Below, one piece after another: positions 3,180 through 23,870 of a stretch of DNA of 24,411 nt. A program made the translations under genes and the position numbers. Position 1 is the first letter of the stretch; every line of letters begins with the position of its first letter. Origin of the DNA: a virus (taxonomy: Duplodnaviria > Caudoviricetes); the IMG/VR virus record IMGVR_UViG_3300031519_004513, positions 1 through 24,411 of that record; one strand, given 5' to 3'. The notes below the pieces were generated by a model, which saw only the letters and a list, made by a program, of their open reading frames with translations, was not told where the DNA came from and did not search any database.

Positions 3180-3211
3180 TATTCAAACTCATATTCGTCA
3201 TTAGTCCACAT
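3179..3211 (-). CDS. 10-aa mini-ORF MWTNDEYEFE
   Basis: TAATG overlaps at both ends (3211 and 3179). Confidence 0.4.
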   Translation of the reverse strand: MWTNDEYEFE

Positions 3212-3366
3212 TAGGAATTATACATTGAATGTTTGTGATCAGCAATCTCTTTCGCGGCAGTATAGTGCCCTAGAGTGCGAAGCTGTTGAATGGCCATGCA
3301 GTATGCTCTATACTCTTGTGCTTTGATAAAACGCTTCCAGCCTCTAACTAAAAAGTTATCTTCCAT
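3211..3366 (-). CDS. 51-aa small protein (MEDNFLVRGWKRF...)
   Basis: Start reassigned to ATG 3366, in TGATG overlap with the upstream ORF. Confidence 0.65.
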   Translation of the reverse strand: MEDNFLVRGWKRFIKAQEYRAYCMAIQQLRTLGHYTAAKEIADHKHSMYNS

Positions 3367-3464
3367 CACAAGCCTTCGAGTGTTAAAAAGCCAGCATACG
3401 AACGACAATTTGCTTTTTGCGATGTTTTCCAACGCTTTAATCCTGCTAACAAAAATGTATCCAT
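3366..3464 (-). CDS. 32-aa small protein
   Basis: MDTFLLAGLKRWKTSQKANCRSYAGFLTLEGL*; starts 2 nt after the DUF1127 stop, with GAGGAAG upstream. Confidence 0.5.
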   Translation of the reverse strand: MDTFLLAGLKRWKTSQKANCRSYAGFLTLEGL

Positions 3465-3466
3465 GA

Positions 3467-3688
3467 TTAGTTTCTTCCTCTATCTACAGTTCCGCCACGA
3501 CAGATGTGATTGATGTCACCGCGTGTGATACCAATGTCTTTTAATTCGTAATCGCTTAACCTGCTTAGTTGCTTATAACCCTTGTGGTCGAAACTAGAAT
3601 CAAATCTGCTTTCAGTTACAAATCCTTTGAAGAATTTTGCGACTGTATCACATAATGAACAGTAAACTTGTGTAAGTGCTGTACTCAT
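3467..3688 (-). CDS. DUF1127 (YjiS-like) small protein
   Basis: KQLSRLSDYELKDIGITRGDI is the DUF1127 signature; AGGAG SD; ATGA overlap. Confidence 0.88.
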   Translation of the reverse strand: MSTALTQVYCSLCDTVAKFFKGFVTESRFDSSFDHKGYKQLSRLSDYELKDIGITRGDINHICRGGTVDRGRN

Positions 3689-3867
3689 TTCTCATCTCCT
3701 AGCATAAGCGCTCTGGCTTCTTTGTGCATACCCATACGTGTAAGTTCAGACGCCGCTCTTGCTTTGCCAGCAGACTCGCCGAGTGCCCAAATATTATATA
3801 GTGTTGATGTTGCGATTGATTTAACTGCTTCGCAAATTGAGCAGTAGTAAGTACTAATAGTTGTCAT
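3685..3867 (-). CDS. 60-aa small protein (probable start 3867)
   Basis: TAATG overlap at 3867; MTTISTYYCSICEAV..GKARAASELTRMGMHKEARALM. Confidence 0.7.
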   Translation of the reverse strand: MTTISTYYCSICEAVKSIATSTLYNIWALGESAGKARAASELTRMGMHKEARALMLGDEK

Positions 3868-4088
3868 TATACCCATCCTGTAAGGTTTGTGTTTTGTGAT
3901 TTAAGTGCGCCATCGTTCCAAGGGTGTATATCCTTGCGTGTTGGTGGTGCGCCGTTGTTTTCTAGCATATGCTGATAAGCAAACTGCCAGTCTTTATTAT
4001 ACTCTGTCTTTGCCCATACGAGGTAATCGTTTTTAGAGGATGGTTTAGATCCAAACAATTGCCGTAGGACTGTAAACACTTTTTTCAT
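3867..4088 (-). CDS. 73-aa small hypothetical protein, first gene of the operon
   Basis: CAGGAG SD; DYLVWAKTEYNKDWQFAYQHM. Confidence 0.75.
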   Translation of the reverse strand: MKKVFTVLRQLFGSKPSSKNDYLVWAKTEYNKDWQFAYQHMLENNGAPPTRKDIHPWNDGALKSQNTNLTGWV

Positions 4089-4444: not shown

Positions 4445-5380
4445 TTGAAAATGAAAATCATCACAGGCAATGCTAACCCCGCGTTGGCACAAGAGATTGC
4501 AGAGAGATGCTTTGCAACCTTAGTTCCTGCAAAAGTCAGTATGTTCGCAGACGGAGAAACAAGCGTAGAGTTCCATGATAACATTAGAGGCGAGGATGTA
4601 TTCATTATACAAAGTACATGTACTCCTGTTAACGACAGTCTAATGGAACTGTTGATTATGATTGATTCGGCAAAGCGATCAAGTGCGGCACGTATTACAG
4701 CAGTTATACCGTACTTCGGTTATGCTAGACAGGATCGCAAGAGTGCAAGTCGCACACCTATTACTGCAAAGTTAGTAGCAGACTTGCTTACCACAGCAGG
4801 AGCAAATAGGATCCTTACAATGGACCTACATGCAGGACAGATACAAGGCTTCTTTAACATTCCAGTTGATGACTTAACAAGCCGTTTGGTATTTGCTAAA
4901 GACATTCAGTATAATGTAGGAACAGATGCTACAGTGTTTGTAAGTCCAGATGCAGGCGGTGTTGTTCGTGCTAGAAAGTTTGCAGACATGTTCCACGCAG
5001 ACATTGCTATAGTAGACAAGATGCGTCCTGAAGCAGGTAAGAGTGAAGTTATGAACTTGATCGGCGATGTTAAAGATAAACACGCCATTCTGGTTGATGA
5101 CATTATTGACAGTGGCGGCACACTATGTAATGCGGCAAAGGCTATTATGGATGCAGGTGCGCTAAGTGTTCGTGCATATATTACACACGGAGTATTGTCA
5201 AGCGAAGCATGTCAGAAGGTTGAAAAGAGTGTACTCACAGAACTTGTAGTTACTAATTCAATCGGTGACCGTTGTCCTAAAAACTGTAAAAAGACACGAC
5301 AGGTAAGTGTCGCGCCTTTGTTTGGTGAAGCTATCCGTAGGGTAACTAACGAAGAGTCAGTTAGCAGTTTGTTTGGTTAG
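4445..5380 (+). CDS. prs: Ribose-phosphate pyrophosphokinase
   Basis: FADGE, VIPYFGYARQDRK, MDLHAGQIQGFF, VSPDAGGVVRA, LVDDIIDSGGT, THGVLS. Start is TTG 4445 or ATG 4451. Confidence 0.96.
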   Translation: MKMKIITGNANPALAQEIAERCFATLVPAKVSMFADGETSVEFHDNIRGEDVFIIQSTCTPVNDSLMELLIMIDSAKRSSAARITAVIPYFGYARQDRKSASRTPITAKLVADLLTTAGANRILTMDLHAGQIQGFFNIPVDDLTSRLVFAKDIQYNVGTDATVFVSPDAGGVVRARKFADMFHADIAIVDKMRPEAGKSEVMNLIGDVKDKHAILVDDIIDSGGTLCNAAKAIMDAGALSVRAYITHGVLSSEACQKVEKSVLTELVVTNSIGDRCPKNCKKTRQVSVAPLFGEAIRRVTNEESVSSLFG

Positions 5381-6138
5381 TCTTGGTCAGCTTCGATGTG
5401 CTTGATGTACTCAACCATTGAGTGATCACCAAAGTTATCGATCTTACCTTTCTTGATGCCCATCCACATACCGCGCAGTCTGTCTTTAAACATCTGCCAG
5501 CCTGTAGGCTTACGAACATTTCCGTATGCATTAATGTAATGCTCAGTACCGTGATGTTTAAATCCCATAACAGCAAGAGGAACAGTAGTGACAATGTCGT
5601 TATTGTTCTTCCACCTGTGATGTATAACATTTAAACTGTTGCAATACTCTCTCCAACCCACACGTGGACTACCGTATGTGAATAGTTCAACAGGATCGTT
5701 TAGTTCTACATTATGTTTTGCTCTGCTTGCCATAATAGTTGCCATGGCCGCTCCTAAACTATGTCCACAAAACCAAAGTGTTTTGGTAACATTAGTCTTA
5801 CGATTAATATCTTCTTCAATCATTGGCCAAAGGTCATCTACCTCTGTCTTAAATCCAATGTGTACTCGTCCTACCGTTTCAGCCATTACCGGAATAGCTT
5901 TTAGATCTGCTTTTAGATCGTTAAATTCAGTTGGTTGCGTTCCTCTGCAGGCGATAACCAAATCTGTCTTGTTCATGAAACGGTATGCTTGAGCACCGTC
6001 CTTTTCATAAAACTCTATTGTTGTGAAACCTAACCGTTTTGCTTGACTCTTTGCTTCTTTGGTGTTATTATATGCTATACTTGATAACTTAGCAAACAAC
6101 AAGGATTTTTCTTTGAAACTTAACTTTTCTATTGACAT
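5377..6138 (-). CDS. Lipase class 3 family alpha/beta hydrolase
   Basis: VIACRGT, VHIGF, GHSLG nucleophile elbow, TYGSPRVG, NNNDIVTTVP, DHSM. Confidence 0.9.
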   Translation of the reverse strand: MSIEKLSFKEKSLLFAKLSSIAYNNTKEAKSQAKRLGFTTIEFYEKDGAQAYRFMNKTDLVIACRGTQPTEFNDLKADLKAIPVMAETVGRVHIGFKTEVDDLWPMIEEDINRKTNVTKTLWFCGHSLGAAMATIMASRAKHNVELNDPVELFTYGSPRVGWREYCNSLNVIHHRWKNNNDIVTTVPLAVMGFKHHGTEHYINAYGNVRKPTGWQMFKDRLRGMWMGIKKGKIDNFGDHSMVEYIKHIEADQD

Positions 6139-11512: not shown

Positions 11513-11800
11513 ATGCTAATAACAGATATCACACCCAACTCCGACTTAACAGAAAAGCAAATCTGGGGTCGTCGAGGAAAAACACTAGTCCGTAAGTACA
11601 AATGCTCAAGTGGCAATCGTAAAGGACGTATTGTTGCTAAGATAGCACAATGTTTTGCCGCACCAAACATTAAAAAGAAAATATCAATGAAGCGTACTAG
11701 AGCTCGACTTGGTGCTAGAATGGCACGTAAGGCTAAGAGAACTAAGCGCATTAATCCAGCTTCAATTGCTTTAACTAGATTGAATAAGAGAAGCAGATGA
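11513..11800 (+). CDS. Highly basic protein, paralog 1
   Basis: Arg/Lys-rich; RKYKCSSGNRKGRIVAK. Confidence 0.8.
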   Translation: MLITDITPNSDLTEKQIWGRRGKTLVRKYKCSSGNRKGRIVAKIAQCFAAPNIKKKISMKRTRARLGARMARKAKRTKRINPASIALTRLNKRSR

Positions 11801-11913
11801 GAATTCAAGACATTACAGAAGGCGCTGTCGGTATCTTTGGAAGATCCAAAGGCAAAGTAACACGCAAGTATCGTTGCACAAGTGGCACACGTAAAGGACG
11901 TATTGTTGCTAAG
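11618..11913 (+). repeat. 24-nt direct repeat shared by the paralogous genes
   Basis: CGTAAAGGACGTATTGTTGCTAAG at 11618-11641 and 11890-11913. Confidence 0.9.
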
Positions 11914-12114
11914 GCTACAACATGTAATGCTCCAATCAACGTTAAATCTAAACTAGCAATGAAAAAGACTAGAGCAAGAAAAGGCTCAATGATGGGAGTT
12001 AAGTCTAAGTTTACAAAACGTAACAGTCCAACCTCAAAAACTATAAATAGATTAAACAAGACTAGAATGAAACCTACTAAACGTTCAACAGCCAAGCGGA
12101 AGAGAATGAAATGA
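11797..12114 (+). CDS. Highly basic protein, paralog 2
   Basis: RKYRCTSGTRKGRIVAK; ATGA overlap. Confidence 0.8.
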   Translation: MRIQDITEGAVGIFGRSKGKVTRKYRCTSGTRKGRIVAKATTCNAPINVKSKLAMKKTRARKGSMMGVKSKFTKRNSPTSKTINRLNKTRMKPTKRSTAKRKRMK

Positions 12115-13842: not shown

Positions 13843-14796
13843 ATGCTTATTAACGAATTTTCAAAACCTATTACAGTTAAGTCTCTAAATGAGAACCTAG
13901 CTAAAAGATATGGTAAAACTATTGATGTAGACAAATTTACAACTGAGCAACTAATGAACGCTCGTAACAAATTACGTACAACACTTTCACAAGTTGAGAC
14001 TAATGAGAGTTTTGATTCTGTTCACACTAGCGATACATATCAAAAGAACAAATTGTTCCTTGAGCTTTTGAACACAGCATTGTCAGAGCGTGATATGTTA
14101 GAAGGTGAAGTACCAGCAGGGCTAAAAGCATACCAAGATAAGAAAGCAGGCAAGAAGCCAGCAGATAAGAAGCCAAAAGACGGCAAGATGCCAATGGATG
14201 ACAATGGCACGCCAGGTGACAAGTCAGACGACAAGCCAGCTTTCCTTAAAAAGAAAGATTCTAAAACTGATGAAGGTTCATACGGTAAGAAGAAGAAGGC
14301 TGTTAAAGAAGGCGCAGAAGAAGAAGCAACTCTTGTTATGGCCGCAAAGGATATGGTTGATCGCATTACTGGTTGGATGGAAGACACAGCAGAAATGCAA
14401 ACTGAATCCATGCTAGAACTAGGCGACAAGATTAGAGACGAGCACGGAGTTGATCAAAGTGAAAACTTTATTAACACAGTTAAGCCTGCATTAGGTTCGT
14501 TGTTTTCATCACTAGAGGTTACCCGTGACGCATTGACATCTGGCGTAGCTATCTTAACAGGCGAAGGCGCACCTCAAACAATGGGCGACGAAGTAGAAGA
14601 TGACGACATGACCGACATGGATATGGACGACACTGATATGGATGCAGACGTTGACGCAGACGACATGGACGACGAGTTTGGTGCGGCAGACGCAAGTGCT
14701 GGTGGAGATGAACCAGAAGATAGAAGCAAGCGCGAGAGTGTAGAACTTTCAAAGCGTTTAGGTCTATTACTGGCTGGCTCAAAAAAAAAGCAATAA
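13843..14796 (+). CDS. Acidic scaffold/prohead-core-like protein
   Basis: TAAATA (13810-13819) and AAGGA SD; leader MLINEF; several [ILV]xE sites; D/M-rich acidic tract. Confidence 0.7.
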   Translation: MLINEFSKPITVKSLNENLAKRYGKTIDVDKFTTEQLMNARNKLRTTLSQVETNESFDSVHTSDTYQKNKLFLELLNTALSERDMLEGEVPAGLKAYQDKKAGKKPADKKPKDGKMPMDDNGTPGDKSDDKPAFLKKKDSKTDEGSYGKKKKAVKEGAEEEATLVMAAKDMVDRITGWMEDTAEMQTESMLELGDKIRDEHGVDQSENFINTVKPALGSLFSSLEVTRDALTSGVAILTGEGAPQTMGDEVEDDDMTDMDMDDTDMDADVDADDMDDEFGAADASAGGDEPEDRSKRESVELSKRLGLLLAGSKKKQ

Positions 14797-14823
14797 GTGA
14801 AAGTGTTTCAGACAGCCTTTCAC
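14784..14823 (+). other. Putative -1 programmed ribosomal frameshift signal
   Basis: In-frame A_AAA_AAG (14784-14790), 6-nt spacer, stem GTGAAAG (14797-14803)/CTTTCAC (14817-14823). Confidence 0.7.
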
Positions 14824-15089
14824 AAATCATACATTTAAAATTACAACAAGGTGCCGGCAAAATTAGCTGGGACGAACTAAACGATTACCTTAGTAACACC
14901 GAAAGTGAACACTTTGATAGAGAAAGTTTTGTTGTTGCATATAACAGTGACCAGCGTTTACAAAATCTAGTTAATAACTTTGACGAAAACGGACTTGTAC
15001 TTGCTGGTAGTCAAGACATTCGGTCTGAACCAGAAGACAAAACTGTCGATAACATGGCTGACAGAGCTACAGCCAACGCAATGAAATAA
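14790..15089 (+). CDS. Start-less -1 frame ORF (99 codons), probable frameshift extension
   Basis: AISESVSDSLSQIIHLKLQQGAGKISWDELNDYL..DNMADRATANAMK*; no ATG/GTG/TTG between the in-frame TAG at 14721 and 15054. Confidence 0.7.
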   Translation, partial: AISESVSDSLSQIIHLKLQQGAGKISWDELNDYLSNTESEHFDRESFVVAYNSDQRLQNLVNNFDENGLVLAGSQDIRSEPEDKTVDNMADRATANAMK

Positions 15090-15103: not shown

Positions 15104-15132
15104 TTGACTTCTTAACTTTATGATTGTATAAT
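15104..15132 (+). promoter_or_regulatory. Sigma70-type promoter
   Basis: TTGACT-N17-TATAAT. Confidence 0.85.
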
Positions 15133-15154: not shown

Positions 15155-15754
15155 ATGAGTTTACTTAAAAATATCAATGGAATAGAACTATACGTAGTTC
15201 CTAATCAACATTGGATTGTAAGTGCAATATATCCGTATTATAAAGATCTAGAACATTTGTTTGACTTTTCGTCACACGATATGACTGCAGGTCATTGTAC
15301 TGTTAACGGAATTCAAAAGCCTTTACTACCAGATGAGTGGACACGAGAACGTGAAGACTATCGTATGTGGATGTTAGATATATTTAAACAAGTAAGTGTG
15401 CCTATTAAAGAAATTAACGATAGAGACATCGGACCTGAGTATAAAGCATGGACTATTAATTACTTTCCAGGAGGCTGGCAAGCAGGACATTTTCATTCTA
15501 TAGATAAAATGTCACAGGATAATGATAGATTTGCTTCTAGTGTTATGTTCTTTGATCACATCAAACCAAAAAAGCGTAACAAGTTCAACGGAGCATTGTA
15601 TACTACAATGCAAAGTCTTTCAGGTTATACATATGATCACAAGTTTTATCCTGAACCCGGAAGAGTAGTAATCATGGACGACAGGGTGTGGCACGGTGTG
15701 TACCCAACTGAAGATAACAGACGCTCCCTAGTATGGGACTTTGACATAGCATGA
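15155..15754 (+). CDS. 2OG-Fe(II) oxygenase-like (double-stranded beta-helix) protein
   Basis: AWTINY..GHFH..SSVMFF..PEPGRVVIMDDRVWHGVYP..RRSLVWD. Confidence 0.7.
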   Translation: MSLLKNINGIELYVVPNQHWIVSAIYPYYKDLEHLFDFSSHDMTAGHCTVNGIQKPLLPDEWTREREDYRMWMLDIFKQVSVPIKEINDRDIGPEYKAWTINYFPGGWQAGHFHSIDKMSQDNDRFASSVMFFDHIKPKKRNKFNGALYTTMQSLSGYTYDHKFYPEPGRVVIMDDRVWHGVYPTEDNRRSLVWDFDIA

Positions 15755-16494
15755 GAGTAGGCGTACGAGGAAGTAAACTTGCAATAGCATACGCAGAACG
15801 TGTATGCAACGAGTTGCCTTGCGACACAGAGATAGTTATTATCAAAACACTAGGAGACTTAAATCCTGATGTACCTATACATGAGATAGGTGGCAAGGGT
15901 GTTTTCTGTAGCGCAATCGAAAACGCATTGTTTAACAACGAAATTGACATAGCAGTACATAGTTTAAAAGACATGCCCGGCGATGTTGAACATCCTGACT
16001 TAGAGATTAGCGCAGTACTACAGCGCAGTAGTCCTTATGATGTATTGTTAGGCAAAGTGTTTGATGGAAGTACAATTGGCACTAGTAGTCCTAGGCGCAC
16101 AGCACAACTAACACAATTATATCCTAATAGTAAAATATTACCAATTAGAGGTAATATAGATTCTCGCCTAAATAAACTTGACAACGGGCAGTATGATGCT
16201 ATAATACTAGCACAAGCAGGATTAGATGCTTTAAACATTCATCGAGATGACATAACAATACTACCAATTGTTCCAGCAGTGGGTCAAGGTATTATTGCAT
16301 TACAAACAAGACAAAATAGCAAAGCAAGTAAGATTGCCAAGCAAGTAAATCACACACTAACTTTTGCACAAGCACAGTTAGAAAGAGCATTGCTTAAAGG
16401 TATTGCAGGAGATTGCCAAACACGAATAGCGGCACACGCTACAGGAAGCAATCCAATCAAACTAGAAGCAGTATATTACACGGAGAATTTATGA
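15751..16494 (+). CDS. hemC: Hydroxymethylbilane synthase (porphobilinogen deaminase), C-terminally short
   Basis: RGSKLA, GGKGVF, DIAVHSLKDMP, GTSSPRR, IRGNIDSRL, PAVGQG, ER..GDCQ (cofactor Cys). Confidence 0.93.
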   Translation: MRVGVRGSKLAIAYAERVCNELPCDTEIVIIKTLGDLNPDVPIHEIGGKGVFCSAIENALFNNEIDIAVHSLKDMPGDVEHPDLEISAVLQRSSPYDVLLGKVFDGSTIGTSSPRRTAQLTQLYPNSKILPIRGNIDSRLNKLDNGQYDAIILAQAGLDALNIHRDDITILPIVPAVGQGIIALQTRQNSKASKIAKQVNHTLTFAQAQLERALLKGIAGDCQTRIAAHATGSNPIKLEAVYYTENL

Positions 16495-23411: not shown

Positions 23412-23585
23412 ATGACAATACATGAAGAAATCGTTGCACAATTTGAAGCGTACCTAACAGAGAATGAAAAATTTGAAGGTGGTACAAAAGCCGCGGCCGC
23501 AAGAGCTCGTAAAGCACTTGGCGATCTAGGCAAGCTAACTAAAGCGAAACGTGCTGAGATTCAAGACAAAAAGAACAATATGTAA
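23412..23585 (+). CDS. Histone H1-like (Hc1-type) small protein, 57 aa
   Basis: Not in ORF track. AAGGAG SD; EKFEGGTKAAAARARKALGDLGKLTKAKRAEI. Confidence 0.8.
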   Translation: MTIHEEIVAQFEAYLTENEKFEGGTKAAAARARKALGDLGKLTKAKRAEIQDKKNNM

Positions 23586-23645: not shown

Positions 23646-23870
23646 ATGACACAACAGGGCAAATTAAAATGGTACAACCACGTGAAAGGTTACGGCTTTA
23701 TTGGGCGTGAAGAAGGCCAATCAGATCTGTTTGTACACATATCCGAATTCCGCAAAATAGGCATCAAGAAAGTTATAGACGGTATGCATATCGAATACGA
23801 TCTAGATGACCACAATGGCAAACCAATTGCTATTAATCTTAAATTAATTCACACTCCAGAACCAAAATAA
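23646..23870 (+). CDS. Cold-shock domain protein
   Basis: GKLKWYN..KGYGFI (RNP1)..DLFVHIS (RNP2). Confidence 0.92.
   Translation: MTQQGKLKWYNHVKGYGFIGREEGQSDLFVHISEFRKIGIKKVIDGMHIEYDLDDHNGKPIAINLKLIHTPEPK

Follow-up and report, generated by a model that had tools for sequence, protein, structure and literature searches.

Within the window, the whole 24,411-nucleotide stretch of tailed-phage DNA, a gene on the plus strand at 13843–14796 encodes a 317-residue protein and ends TCA AAA AAA AAG CAA TAA. Shortly before its stop codon (TAA, 14794–14796, plus strand) lies a run of nine adenines (A9; 14781–14789, plus strand), the sole run of nine A or T residues in the window. The heptamer A_AAA_AAA occupies 14781–14787, and A_AAA_AAG, which takes in the G that follows the run, occupies 14784–14790. 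The −1 frame is open across this junction (14790–15089, plus strand), beginning with GCA at 14790 and closing with TAA at 15087–15089; its 99 codons start with the residues AISE and include no ATG, GTG or TTG ahead of the first helix that is conserved in relatives. A −1 slip at the run would join 316 residues of the upstream protein to these 99, giving a fusion of 415. The initial annotation of this DNA, which proposed a programmed −1 frameshift extending a scaffold-like head protein, had described the same gene end and open frame, and our re-derived coordinates agree with it. It also placed a promoter after the extension, where we find a sigma70-like sequence matching the consensus at 11 of 12 positions (15104–15132, plus strand) that would serve the downstream genes and marks the end of the unit.

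A 10-bp hairpin is predicted at 14797–14823 (plus strand, −7.9 kcal/mol). It begins 6 nt 3′ of the heptamer, as the initial annotation stated, and its inner pairing is predicted to comprise 3 bp instead of the 4 bp given there. Across folds its energy ranges from −7.9 to −9.4 kcal/mol, with z-scores of −2.4 to −3.0 and 2–6 of 200 shuffles as stable, and the 81-nt stretch 14770–14850 has a fold z of just −0.6. A search of Rfam gave no match in the window. In the 0 frame directly after the stop (14797–14835), GTG AAA GTG TTT CAG encodes V-K-V-F-Q, which resembles the MKVFE leader of stand-alone forms of the extension described below and stops after 13 codons; the resemblance is possibly due to chance. 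The large phage genome of which the window is a part encodes a ribonucleotide reductase and an exonuclease, and it carries virion-type as well as host-like metabolic genes. Near-identical matches to the window occur in marine and brine metagenomes.

Homologues of both proteins in cultured jumbo phages

The 317-residue protein matches a PHROG family of virion structural proteins (phrog_14154, E = 2e-14), has no PDB, Pfam or NCBIfam sequence match at the usual thresholds, and is predicted to be entirely helical with acidic, disordered linkers (pLDDT 66). It contains 70 Asp or Glu residues and four [ILV]xE sites, and thus displays the traits of a scaffold of the T4 gp22 type, which is helical, acidic and dotted with protease sites. 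A tblastn search of cultured phages with this protein, the 99-residue extension and a relative's protein gave no matches; the route to jumbo phages of the PA5oct/RaK2 type came through a neighbouring 86-residue gene, gene order and profiles. The profile of the 317-residue family finds a gene, here called X, in each of the nine cultured phages on which it was tried, at E values between 1e-16 and 1e-5, and identifies the protein as a homologue of PA5oct EST35_0237 and RaK2 ORF135. In PA5oct, X is followed by a second gene, Y, then by one gene, the exonuclease, a structural gene, a 144-residue gene and ribonucleotide reductase; the window has the same order, except that two metabolic genes are inserted before the exonuclease. 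The X/Y pairs are EST35_0237/0238 in PA5oct, ORF135/136 in RaK2, 27/28 in 121Q, 298/299 in CBB, 324/325 in Munch and 8/7 in SCTP-2. These phages share with the window a homologous upstream protein, the order ahead of the exonuclease, and a downstream gene of similar size with a similar C-terminal motif. They differ from it in that X and Y are two separate genes with no A-run, as found in all nine cultured phages inspected.

In PA5oct both positional orthologues are listed among virion proteins by mass spectrometry (PMC7318152). EST35_0237 is represented by 9 peptides covering 27% of the protein and was found in a 43-kDa virion band that also contains the major head protein, and EST35_0238 (gene Y) is represented by 2 peptides in the virion table. 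The protein annotated there as scaffold and protease is gp152, the product of a different gene (PMC7318152). The 317-residue product can be called a virion protein, probably one of the head core or interior. The virion part of the initial description as a scaffold-like head protein is borne out by homology, and its scaffold part is left unproven, with the PA5oct homologue staying in purified virions.

For the extension, structure prediction suggests a winged-helix-like domain followed by a C-terminal helix with the motif D-x-V-D-x-M-A (pLDDT 73). Its top matches among solved structures are mostly winged helices, the best with a Z-score of 6.1 (rmsd 2.8 over 64 residues), a middling value in the range common by chance. 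Sequence searches of PHROG, and of Pfam, NCBIfam and PDB at the usual thresholds, gave no match; Foldseek against viral models returned nothing at E ≤ 0.001, and at scores of at least 0.9 the ESM Atlas gave unnamed viral clusters only. Its relationship to gene Y is weak by hmmsearch, in which 6 of 8 Y proteins were listed at E = 0.002–0.46 and that of PA5oct scored below the reporting limit; hhalign gave P = 3.6e-4, against P = 0.18 for a reversed control, with a probability of 37%. The extension and Y also share their position and size, and are alike in their leader and C-terminal motif. The domain may bind nucleic acid.

Conservation of the A-run and the −1 frame

We assembled 391 sequences (390 loci and the window; the first 80 loci have 50–74% identity to the window's 317-residue protein), of which 386 contain both domains and yield 173 distinct junctions. 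The alignment of the extension was too variable to serve for a locus scan. At 150 of the 173 junctions an A-run of at least 8 precedes the stop by 0–22 nt and the domain follows in the −1 frame, which is conserved over roughly 100–130 codons; the runs consist of 138 A9, 11 A10 and one A8. A more distant lineage contributed 25 further run-bearing junctions (23 A9, one A10 and one A11) from 174 loci, among which 104 had no match to the upstream-protein profile, 3 lacked the core and 33 were duplicates. Altogether, runs of at least nine adenines are present in 174 of 175 junctions (149/150 in close relatives and 25/25 in the distant lineage), counts that exceed the number of independent events because the junctions share ancestry. 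The absence of a start codon in the window's extension, remarked on in the initial annotation, is also general: 132 of the 150 run-bearing junctions have no ATG, GTG or TTG ahead of the first conserved helix. A C-terminal KKK/KKN pattern is matched by 61 of 150 representatives taken at 50% identity. When extensions of the window type are compared with nine more distant relatives, most differences affect the third base of −1-frame codons, which shows that this frame is coding. The conservation check suggested at the outset thus came out in favour of the run, the stop and the −1 frame, and against the window's stem, which is not conserved. Together these comparisons support a conserved recoding site that would give products of 317 and 415 residues.

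A minority layout is found at 22 of the 173 junctions, where there is no long run and the domain has a gene of its own, whose ATG lies 4–16 nt beyond the stop and can fall in any one of the three reading frames. Homologues initiated independently in the absence of a slippery site had been named in advance as grounds for rejecting the frameshift; since those junctions lack the A-run, we regard them as an alternative gene layout and not as a refutation of recoding. They carry an M-x-x-x-D/E-I-x-E leader, and leaders such as MRVSDIILE and MKVFELCEE occur among them. On our trees (FastTree, and a quick 78-row tree) the separate-gene forms require at least 3–4 changes, and a rooted tree, which carries long-branch warnings, puts them within A9 lineages. 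In eleven of the 150 junctions (L270, L275, L278, L281, L285, L286 and L300–L304) A9 directly adjoins a GTG codon and a leader-like sequence, V-[RK]-I-x-E-[IV]; by their sequence these look like intermediates that could both slip and re-initiate. At nine junctions of a sister clade there is no run, and the gene directly downstream is unmatched by the extension profile. In one relative (L029, about 2545–2665) some 40 additional residues precede the C-terminus, and TC-A9-G stands at the new end.

A protease-type motif follows the junction

Near the start of the extension lies I-S-E (14793–14801, plus strand, −1 frame), which fits the L/I-X-E motif cleaved by the T4 gp21 protease and is the predicted point of its release. 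The initial annotation had recognised AISE as a protease-type site, an assignment that the relatives strengthen: of 114 distinct sequences, 110 have [ILV]xE within the first 14 residues past the junction, versus 1–12 of 108–118 further in. Overlap with the stop codon partly forces the [ILV] of the motif but not the glutamate, which lies two residues past the stop-overlapping codon in 67 of 117 sequences. In T4, internal proteins are directed to the head by short leaders, and gp21 cleaves behind the sequence L/I-X-E (PMC9026906). Because the motif so regularly follows the junction, the fusion likely delivers the winged-helix-like protein into the head.

Slippage by the polymerase or by the ribosome

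A fusion protein would not in itself discriminate between a slip during transcription and one during translation, since both routes yield the same protein. The reading we favour, to which we give roughly one chance in two, is that RNA polymerase slips on A9 and adds one A in a minority of transcripts. What is conserved is the length of the run rather than its phase or the residues that it encodes. The run survives a change of phase in 12 junctions that read TCG AAA AAA AAA G, and it survives residue changes in others among the 150, with AAC (Asn) in two, GGA (Gly) in one and CCA (Pro) in one; the more distant lineage adds a CAA-led A11 (Gln) and more GGA cases. A_AAA_AAG is present in 125 of the 150 junctions, while the 25 that keep the run without it are spread on several branches. 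The A10 form accounts for 7 changes on the tree, at least 4 of them forced, and the TCG form for 5 changes, at least 4 forced, with FastTree, or 4 changes, at least 2 forced, with the quick 78-row tree. Only one junction retains A_AAA_AAG with the run lost, an outcome that four single synonymous changes could bring about. The protein can do without these lysines, as the separate-gene forms end without KKK. Elsewhere long A-runs are avoided: internal KKK triplets are written AAA AAA AAR in 3 of 122 cases, against 70% use of AAA for Lys, and there are two other A9 runs in 579 kb, a rarity that is also compatible with avoidance of ribosomal slips.

Published work is consistent with a role for the polymerase. 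Nine is the run length at which many bacteria show selection against slippage, and Thermus thermophilus dnaX slips on a run of nine (PMC1088944); PA5oct is described as relying on host RNA polymerase (PMC7318152), and little sliding of ribosomes on A9 or A10 was reported in vitro (PMC4363877). RNA contigs from two runs of one study (X15 and X16) span the site and carry plain A9, and such contigs drop minor variants; two other RNA runs (X17 and X18) leave the site uncovered. Provided that these are genuine RNA libraries, the contigs suggest no more than that A10 does not predominate among the transcripts. In two respects the same X15 and X16 contigs depart from the window: position 14808, in the hairpin loop, reads G in place of T, which turns Ser into Ala in the −1 frame, and the extension's stop at 15089 is followed by one or two additional C residues.

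The principal alternative is programmed −1 ribosomal frameshifting, in which pairs of tRNA-Lys would slip on A_AAA_AAA and then on A_AAA_AAG, aided by the closeness of the stop and by 3′ structure of varying form, and the same 415-residue protein would result. We rate this explanation, helpers included, a serious contender at somewhat under even odds. All 150 junctions hold a perfect in-phase heptamer, and the commonest form, TCA AAA AAA AAG (122/150), consists of exactly two overlapping heptamers. The third lysine codon is AAG in 125 of 150 junctions despite the 70% share of AAA among Lys codons, and a second A_AAA_AAG stands just ahead of the stop in four. A_AAA_AAG ranks among the best slip motifs in E. 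coli and, together with A_AAA_AAA, makes up 72% of the heptamers of IS1 and IS3 elements (PMC4066793), while the recoding described for phage structural genes is ribosomal (PMC5009743). The window's hairpin lies 6 nt downstream, and RNA contigs with A9 are in line with this model. Structure 3′ of the run is modestly enriched more generally. Folds within 0–120 nt have z below −2 in 16–20 of 81 cases, versus 4–6 of 81 further on; the first 120 nt downstream are more structured than a synonymous-recoding null (mean z about −1), with no conserved stem position; and hairpins of −8 kcal/mol or lower at 4–10 nt occur in 18 of 80 representatives, versus 5 of 80 controls.

Several features fit the ribosome less well. 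A single heptamer takes up 6–7 adenines, yet 174 of 175 runs have nine or more, and the TCG lineage gives up A_AAA_AAG and keeps A9. An internal Shine-Dalgarno sequence is an optional stimulator of −1 frameshifting of the dnaX/IS3 type, and a Shine-Dalgarno-like element was found upstream of the site in 5 of 81 cases versus 8 of 81 in the control and 36 of 77 at true starts. A hairpin of −6 kcal/mol or lower at 4–10 nt is absent from 53 of 80 representatives, which share no conserved stem. The initial annotation had read A_AAA_AAG with its 3′ stem as the dnaX/IS3 signal. We do not find that signal established, given the 25 junctions without the heptamer and the variable stem; its slippery site stands insofar as every junction keeps an in-phase heptamer, but the element retained is a run of at least nine adenines and not A_AAA_AAG. 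Transcriptional slippage, which was not considered there, fits at least as well. The invariant run length, the incomplete retention of the heptamer, the unconserved hairpin and the lack of an internal Shine-Dalgarno element tip the choice towards the polymerase. Both kinds of slip may also act on the same A-run.

Much less probable is that no fusion is made and that ribosomes re-initiate at the codon overlapping the stop, the A-run serving as an unstructured enhancer of initiation. The 11 junctions with GTG straight after the run and a leader-like sequence next would suit such a mechanism, as would the GTG with which the downstream gene of PA5oct opens immediately past the stop and the ATA that overlaps TAA in the window. 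Against it, the stop-overlapping codon is frequently GTA, CTA or TTA, most junctions offer no start codon ahead of the first conserved helix, and none of the 175 junctions with a run has the domain in any frame but −1, whereas the 22 separate genes use all three frames. Finally, the notion that the true gene is a single A10 reading frame, or that genomes flip between A9 and A10, is largely refuted and very improbable: one junction (L345) is in frame via A10 and in-frame fusions P0123, P0167 and P0181 exist in protein collections (P0240, a third profile match, appears to be a frame artefact), but contigs of four DNA runs from four studies bridge A9 with no gaps, which rules out the missing A of which the initial annotation had warned, and A9 or A10 with the identical frame break is found in 149 of 173 distinct junctions of relatives, the break being held in all 175 with a run.

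Discussion

Our analysis points to a real, conserved recoding site at the end of a phage virion gene, with a mechanism that leans transcriptional. We infer that slippage takes place, that it is transcriptional, that the product is located in the head and that it is cleaved. RNA polymerase would slip on A9 and add one A to a minority of transcripts, from which a 415-residue fusion would be made alongside the 317-residue protein. As part of the fusion, the 99-residue winged-helix-like domain would travel into the phage head and there be released by the head protease through a cut at I-S-E. The fusion appears to take the place of the N-terminal leader of the stand-alone gene, and it would set how much of the minor protein is made for a given amount of the major one. 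Taken as a whole, we propose tentatively, with the odds somewhat against the entire chain being correct, that in a large and widespread clade of marine jumbo phages a slip of the host RNA polymerase on A9 is a packaging device: it would hook a winged-helix nucleic-acid-binding protein to a head-core protein, replace its leader and set its copy number, the protease would free it, and the clade would have switched several times to or from a separate, leader-bearing gene through A9-GTG intermediates.

The closest parallels for the proposed slip are T. thermophilus dnaX and Shigella mxiE, in which a run of nine A in the sense strand near the gene end gives two products with a common N-terminus and, for mxiE, the longer product requires the slip (PMC1088944). 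Unlike those genes, ours is a phage virion gene with a putative slip, and its extension corresponds to an entire protein that has its own gene in other relatives. With E. coli dnaX and the IS3 family it shares an in-phase A_AAA_AAG or A_AAA_AAA, an overlap in the −1 frame and, as far as the window itself is concerned, a hairpin that starts 6 nt past the heptamer (PMC4066793); it differs in having no Shine-Dalgarno stimulator and no conserved stem, and in the invariance of run length instead of the heptamer. Frameshifts described for phage structural genes produce tail chaperones or extensions of capsid or tail-tube proteins, and lambda G-GT, gene 10 of T3 and T7, and phages A2, A118, A500 and PSA resemble our site in that one morphogenesis gene gives a short major and a longer minor product (PMC5009743). 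In contrast to these, the window's gene encodes no tail chaperone, capsid or tail-tube protein, and its extension is not Ig-like but predicted to be winged-helix-like and apparently cut off again. As with the internal head proteins of T4 (PMC9026906), many neighbouring genes and the stand-alone form start with a short leader that closes with I/L-x-E, and the motif recurs immediately past the junction. We found no homology in sequence to proteins of T4, and in the A9 form a whole upstream protein takes the leader's place.

No description of this site was found in the literature searched, whose coverage stopped short of subscription journals and bioRxiv supplements, and the papers searched gave no case of a tailed-phage virion gene whose product arises through slippage in transcription. 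The extension escapes gene callers in this clade, so that annotations of a large marine jumbo-phage family lack a conserved virion protein. The 175 natural variants reveal which features of an A-run are kept by selection and bear on how polymerase slippage can be told from ribosomal frameshifting, while the fused, separate and apparently intermediate layouts show in what way recoding can take over from a targeting leader. The function of both proteins is open to experiment in cultured relatives such as PA5oct, 121Q and RaK2.

Other features of the window

Three metabolic genes score above NCBIfam cut-offs: 5-aminolevulinate synthase (1444–2634), PRPP synthetase (4445–5380) and hydroxymethylbilane synthase (hemC, 15751–16494), so that two steps of the haem pathway are encoded within one phage. 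The genes inserted between the extension and the exonuclease are hemC and a 2OG-Fe(II) oxygenase-like gene. On the minus strand, 3211–4088 holds four short tandem reading frames of 63–73 residues; one belongs to DUF1127, and two others resemble it by eye and have no DUF1127 match. The 5-aminolevulinate synthase and DUF1127 genes may point to an alphaproteobacterial host. Two adjacent, very basic and mutually similar reading frames of about 100 residues at 11513–12114 have the motif C-x-S-G-x-R-K-G-R-I-V-A-K and no Pfam or PHROG match. Genes for a class 3 lipase (5377–6138), a histone H1-like Hc1 protein (23412–23585) and a cold-shock protein (23646–23870) are also present. Between 8975 and 13843, several successive genes open with similar leaders that resemble the capsid-targeting sequences of T4: MKMTDIHE, MRIQDITE, MRLNEL, MRFNEF, MKINELIQE and MLINEF.
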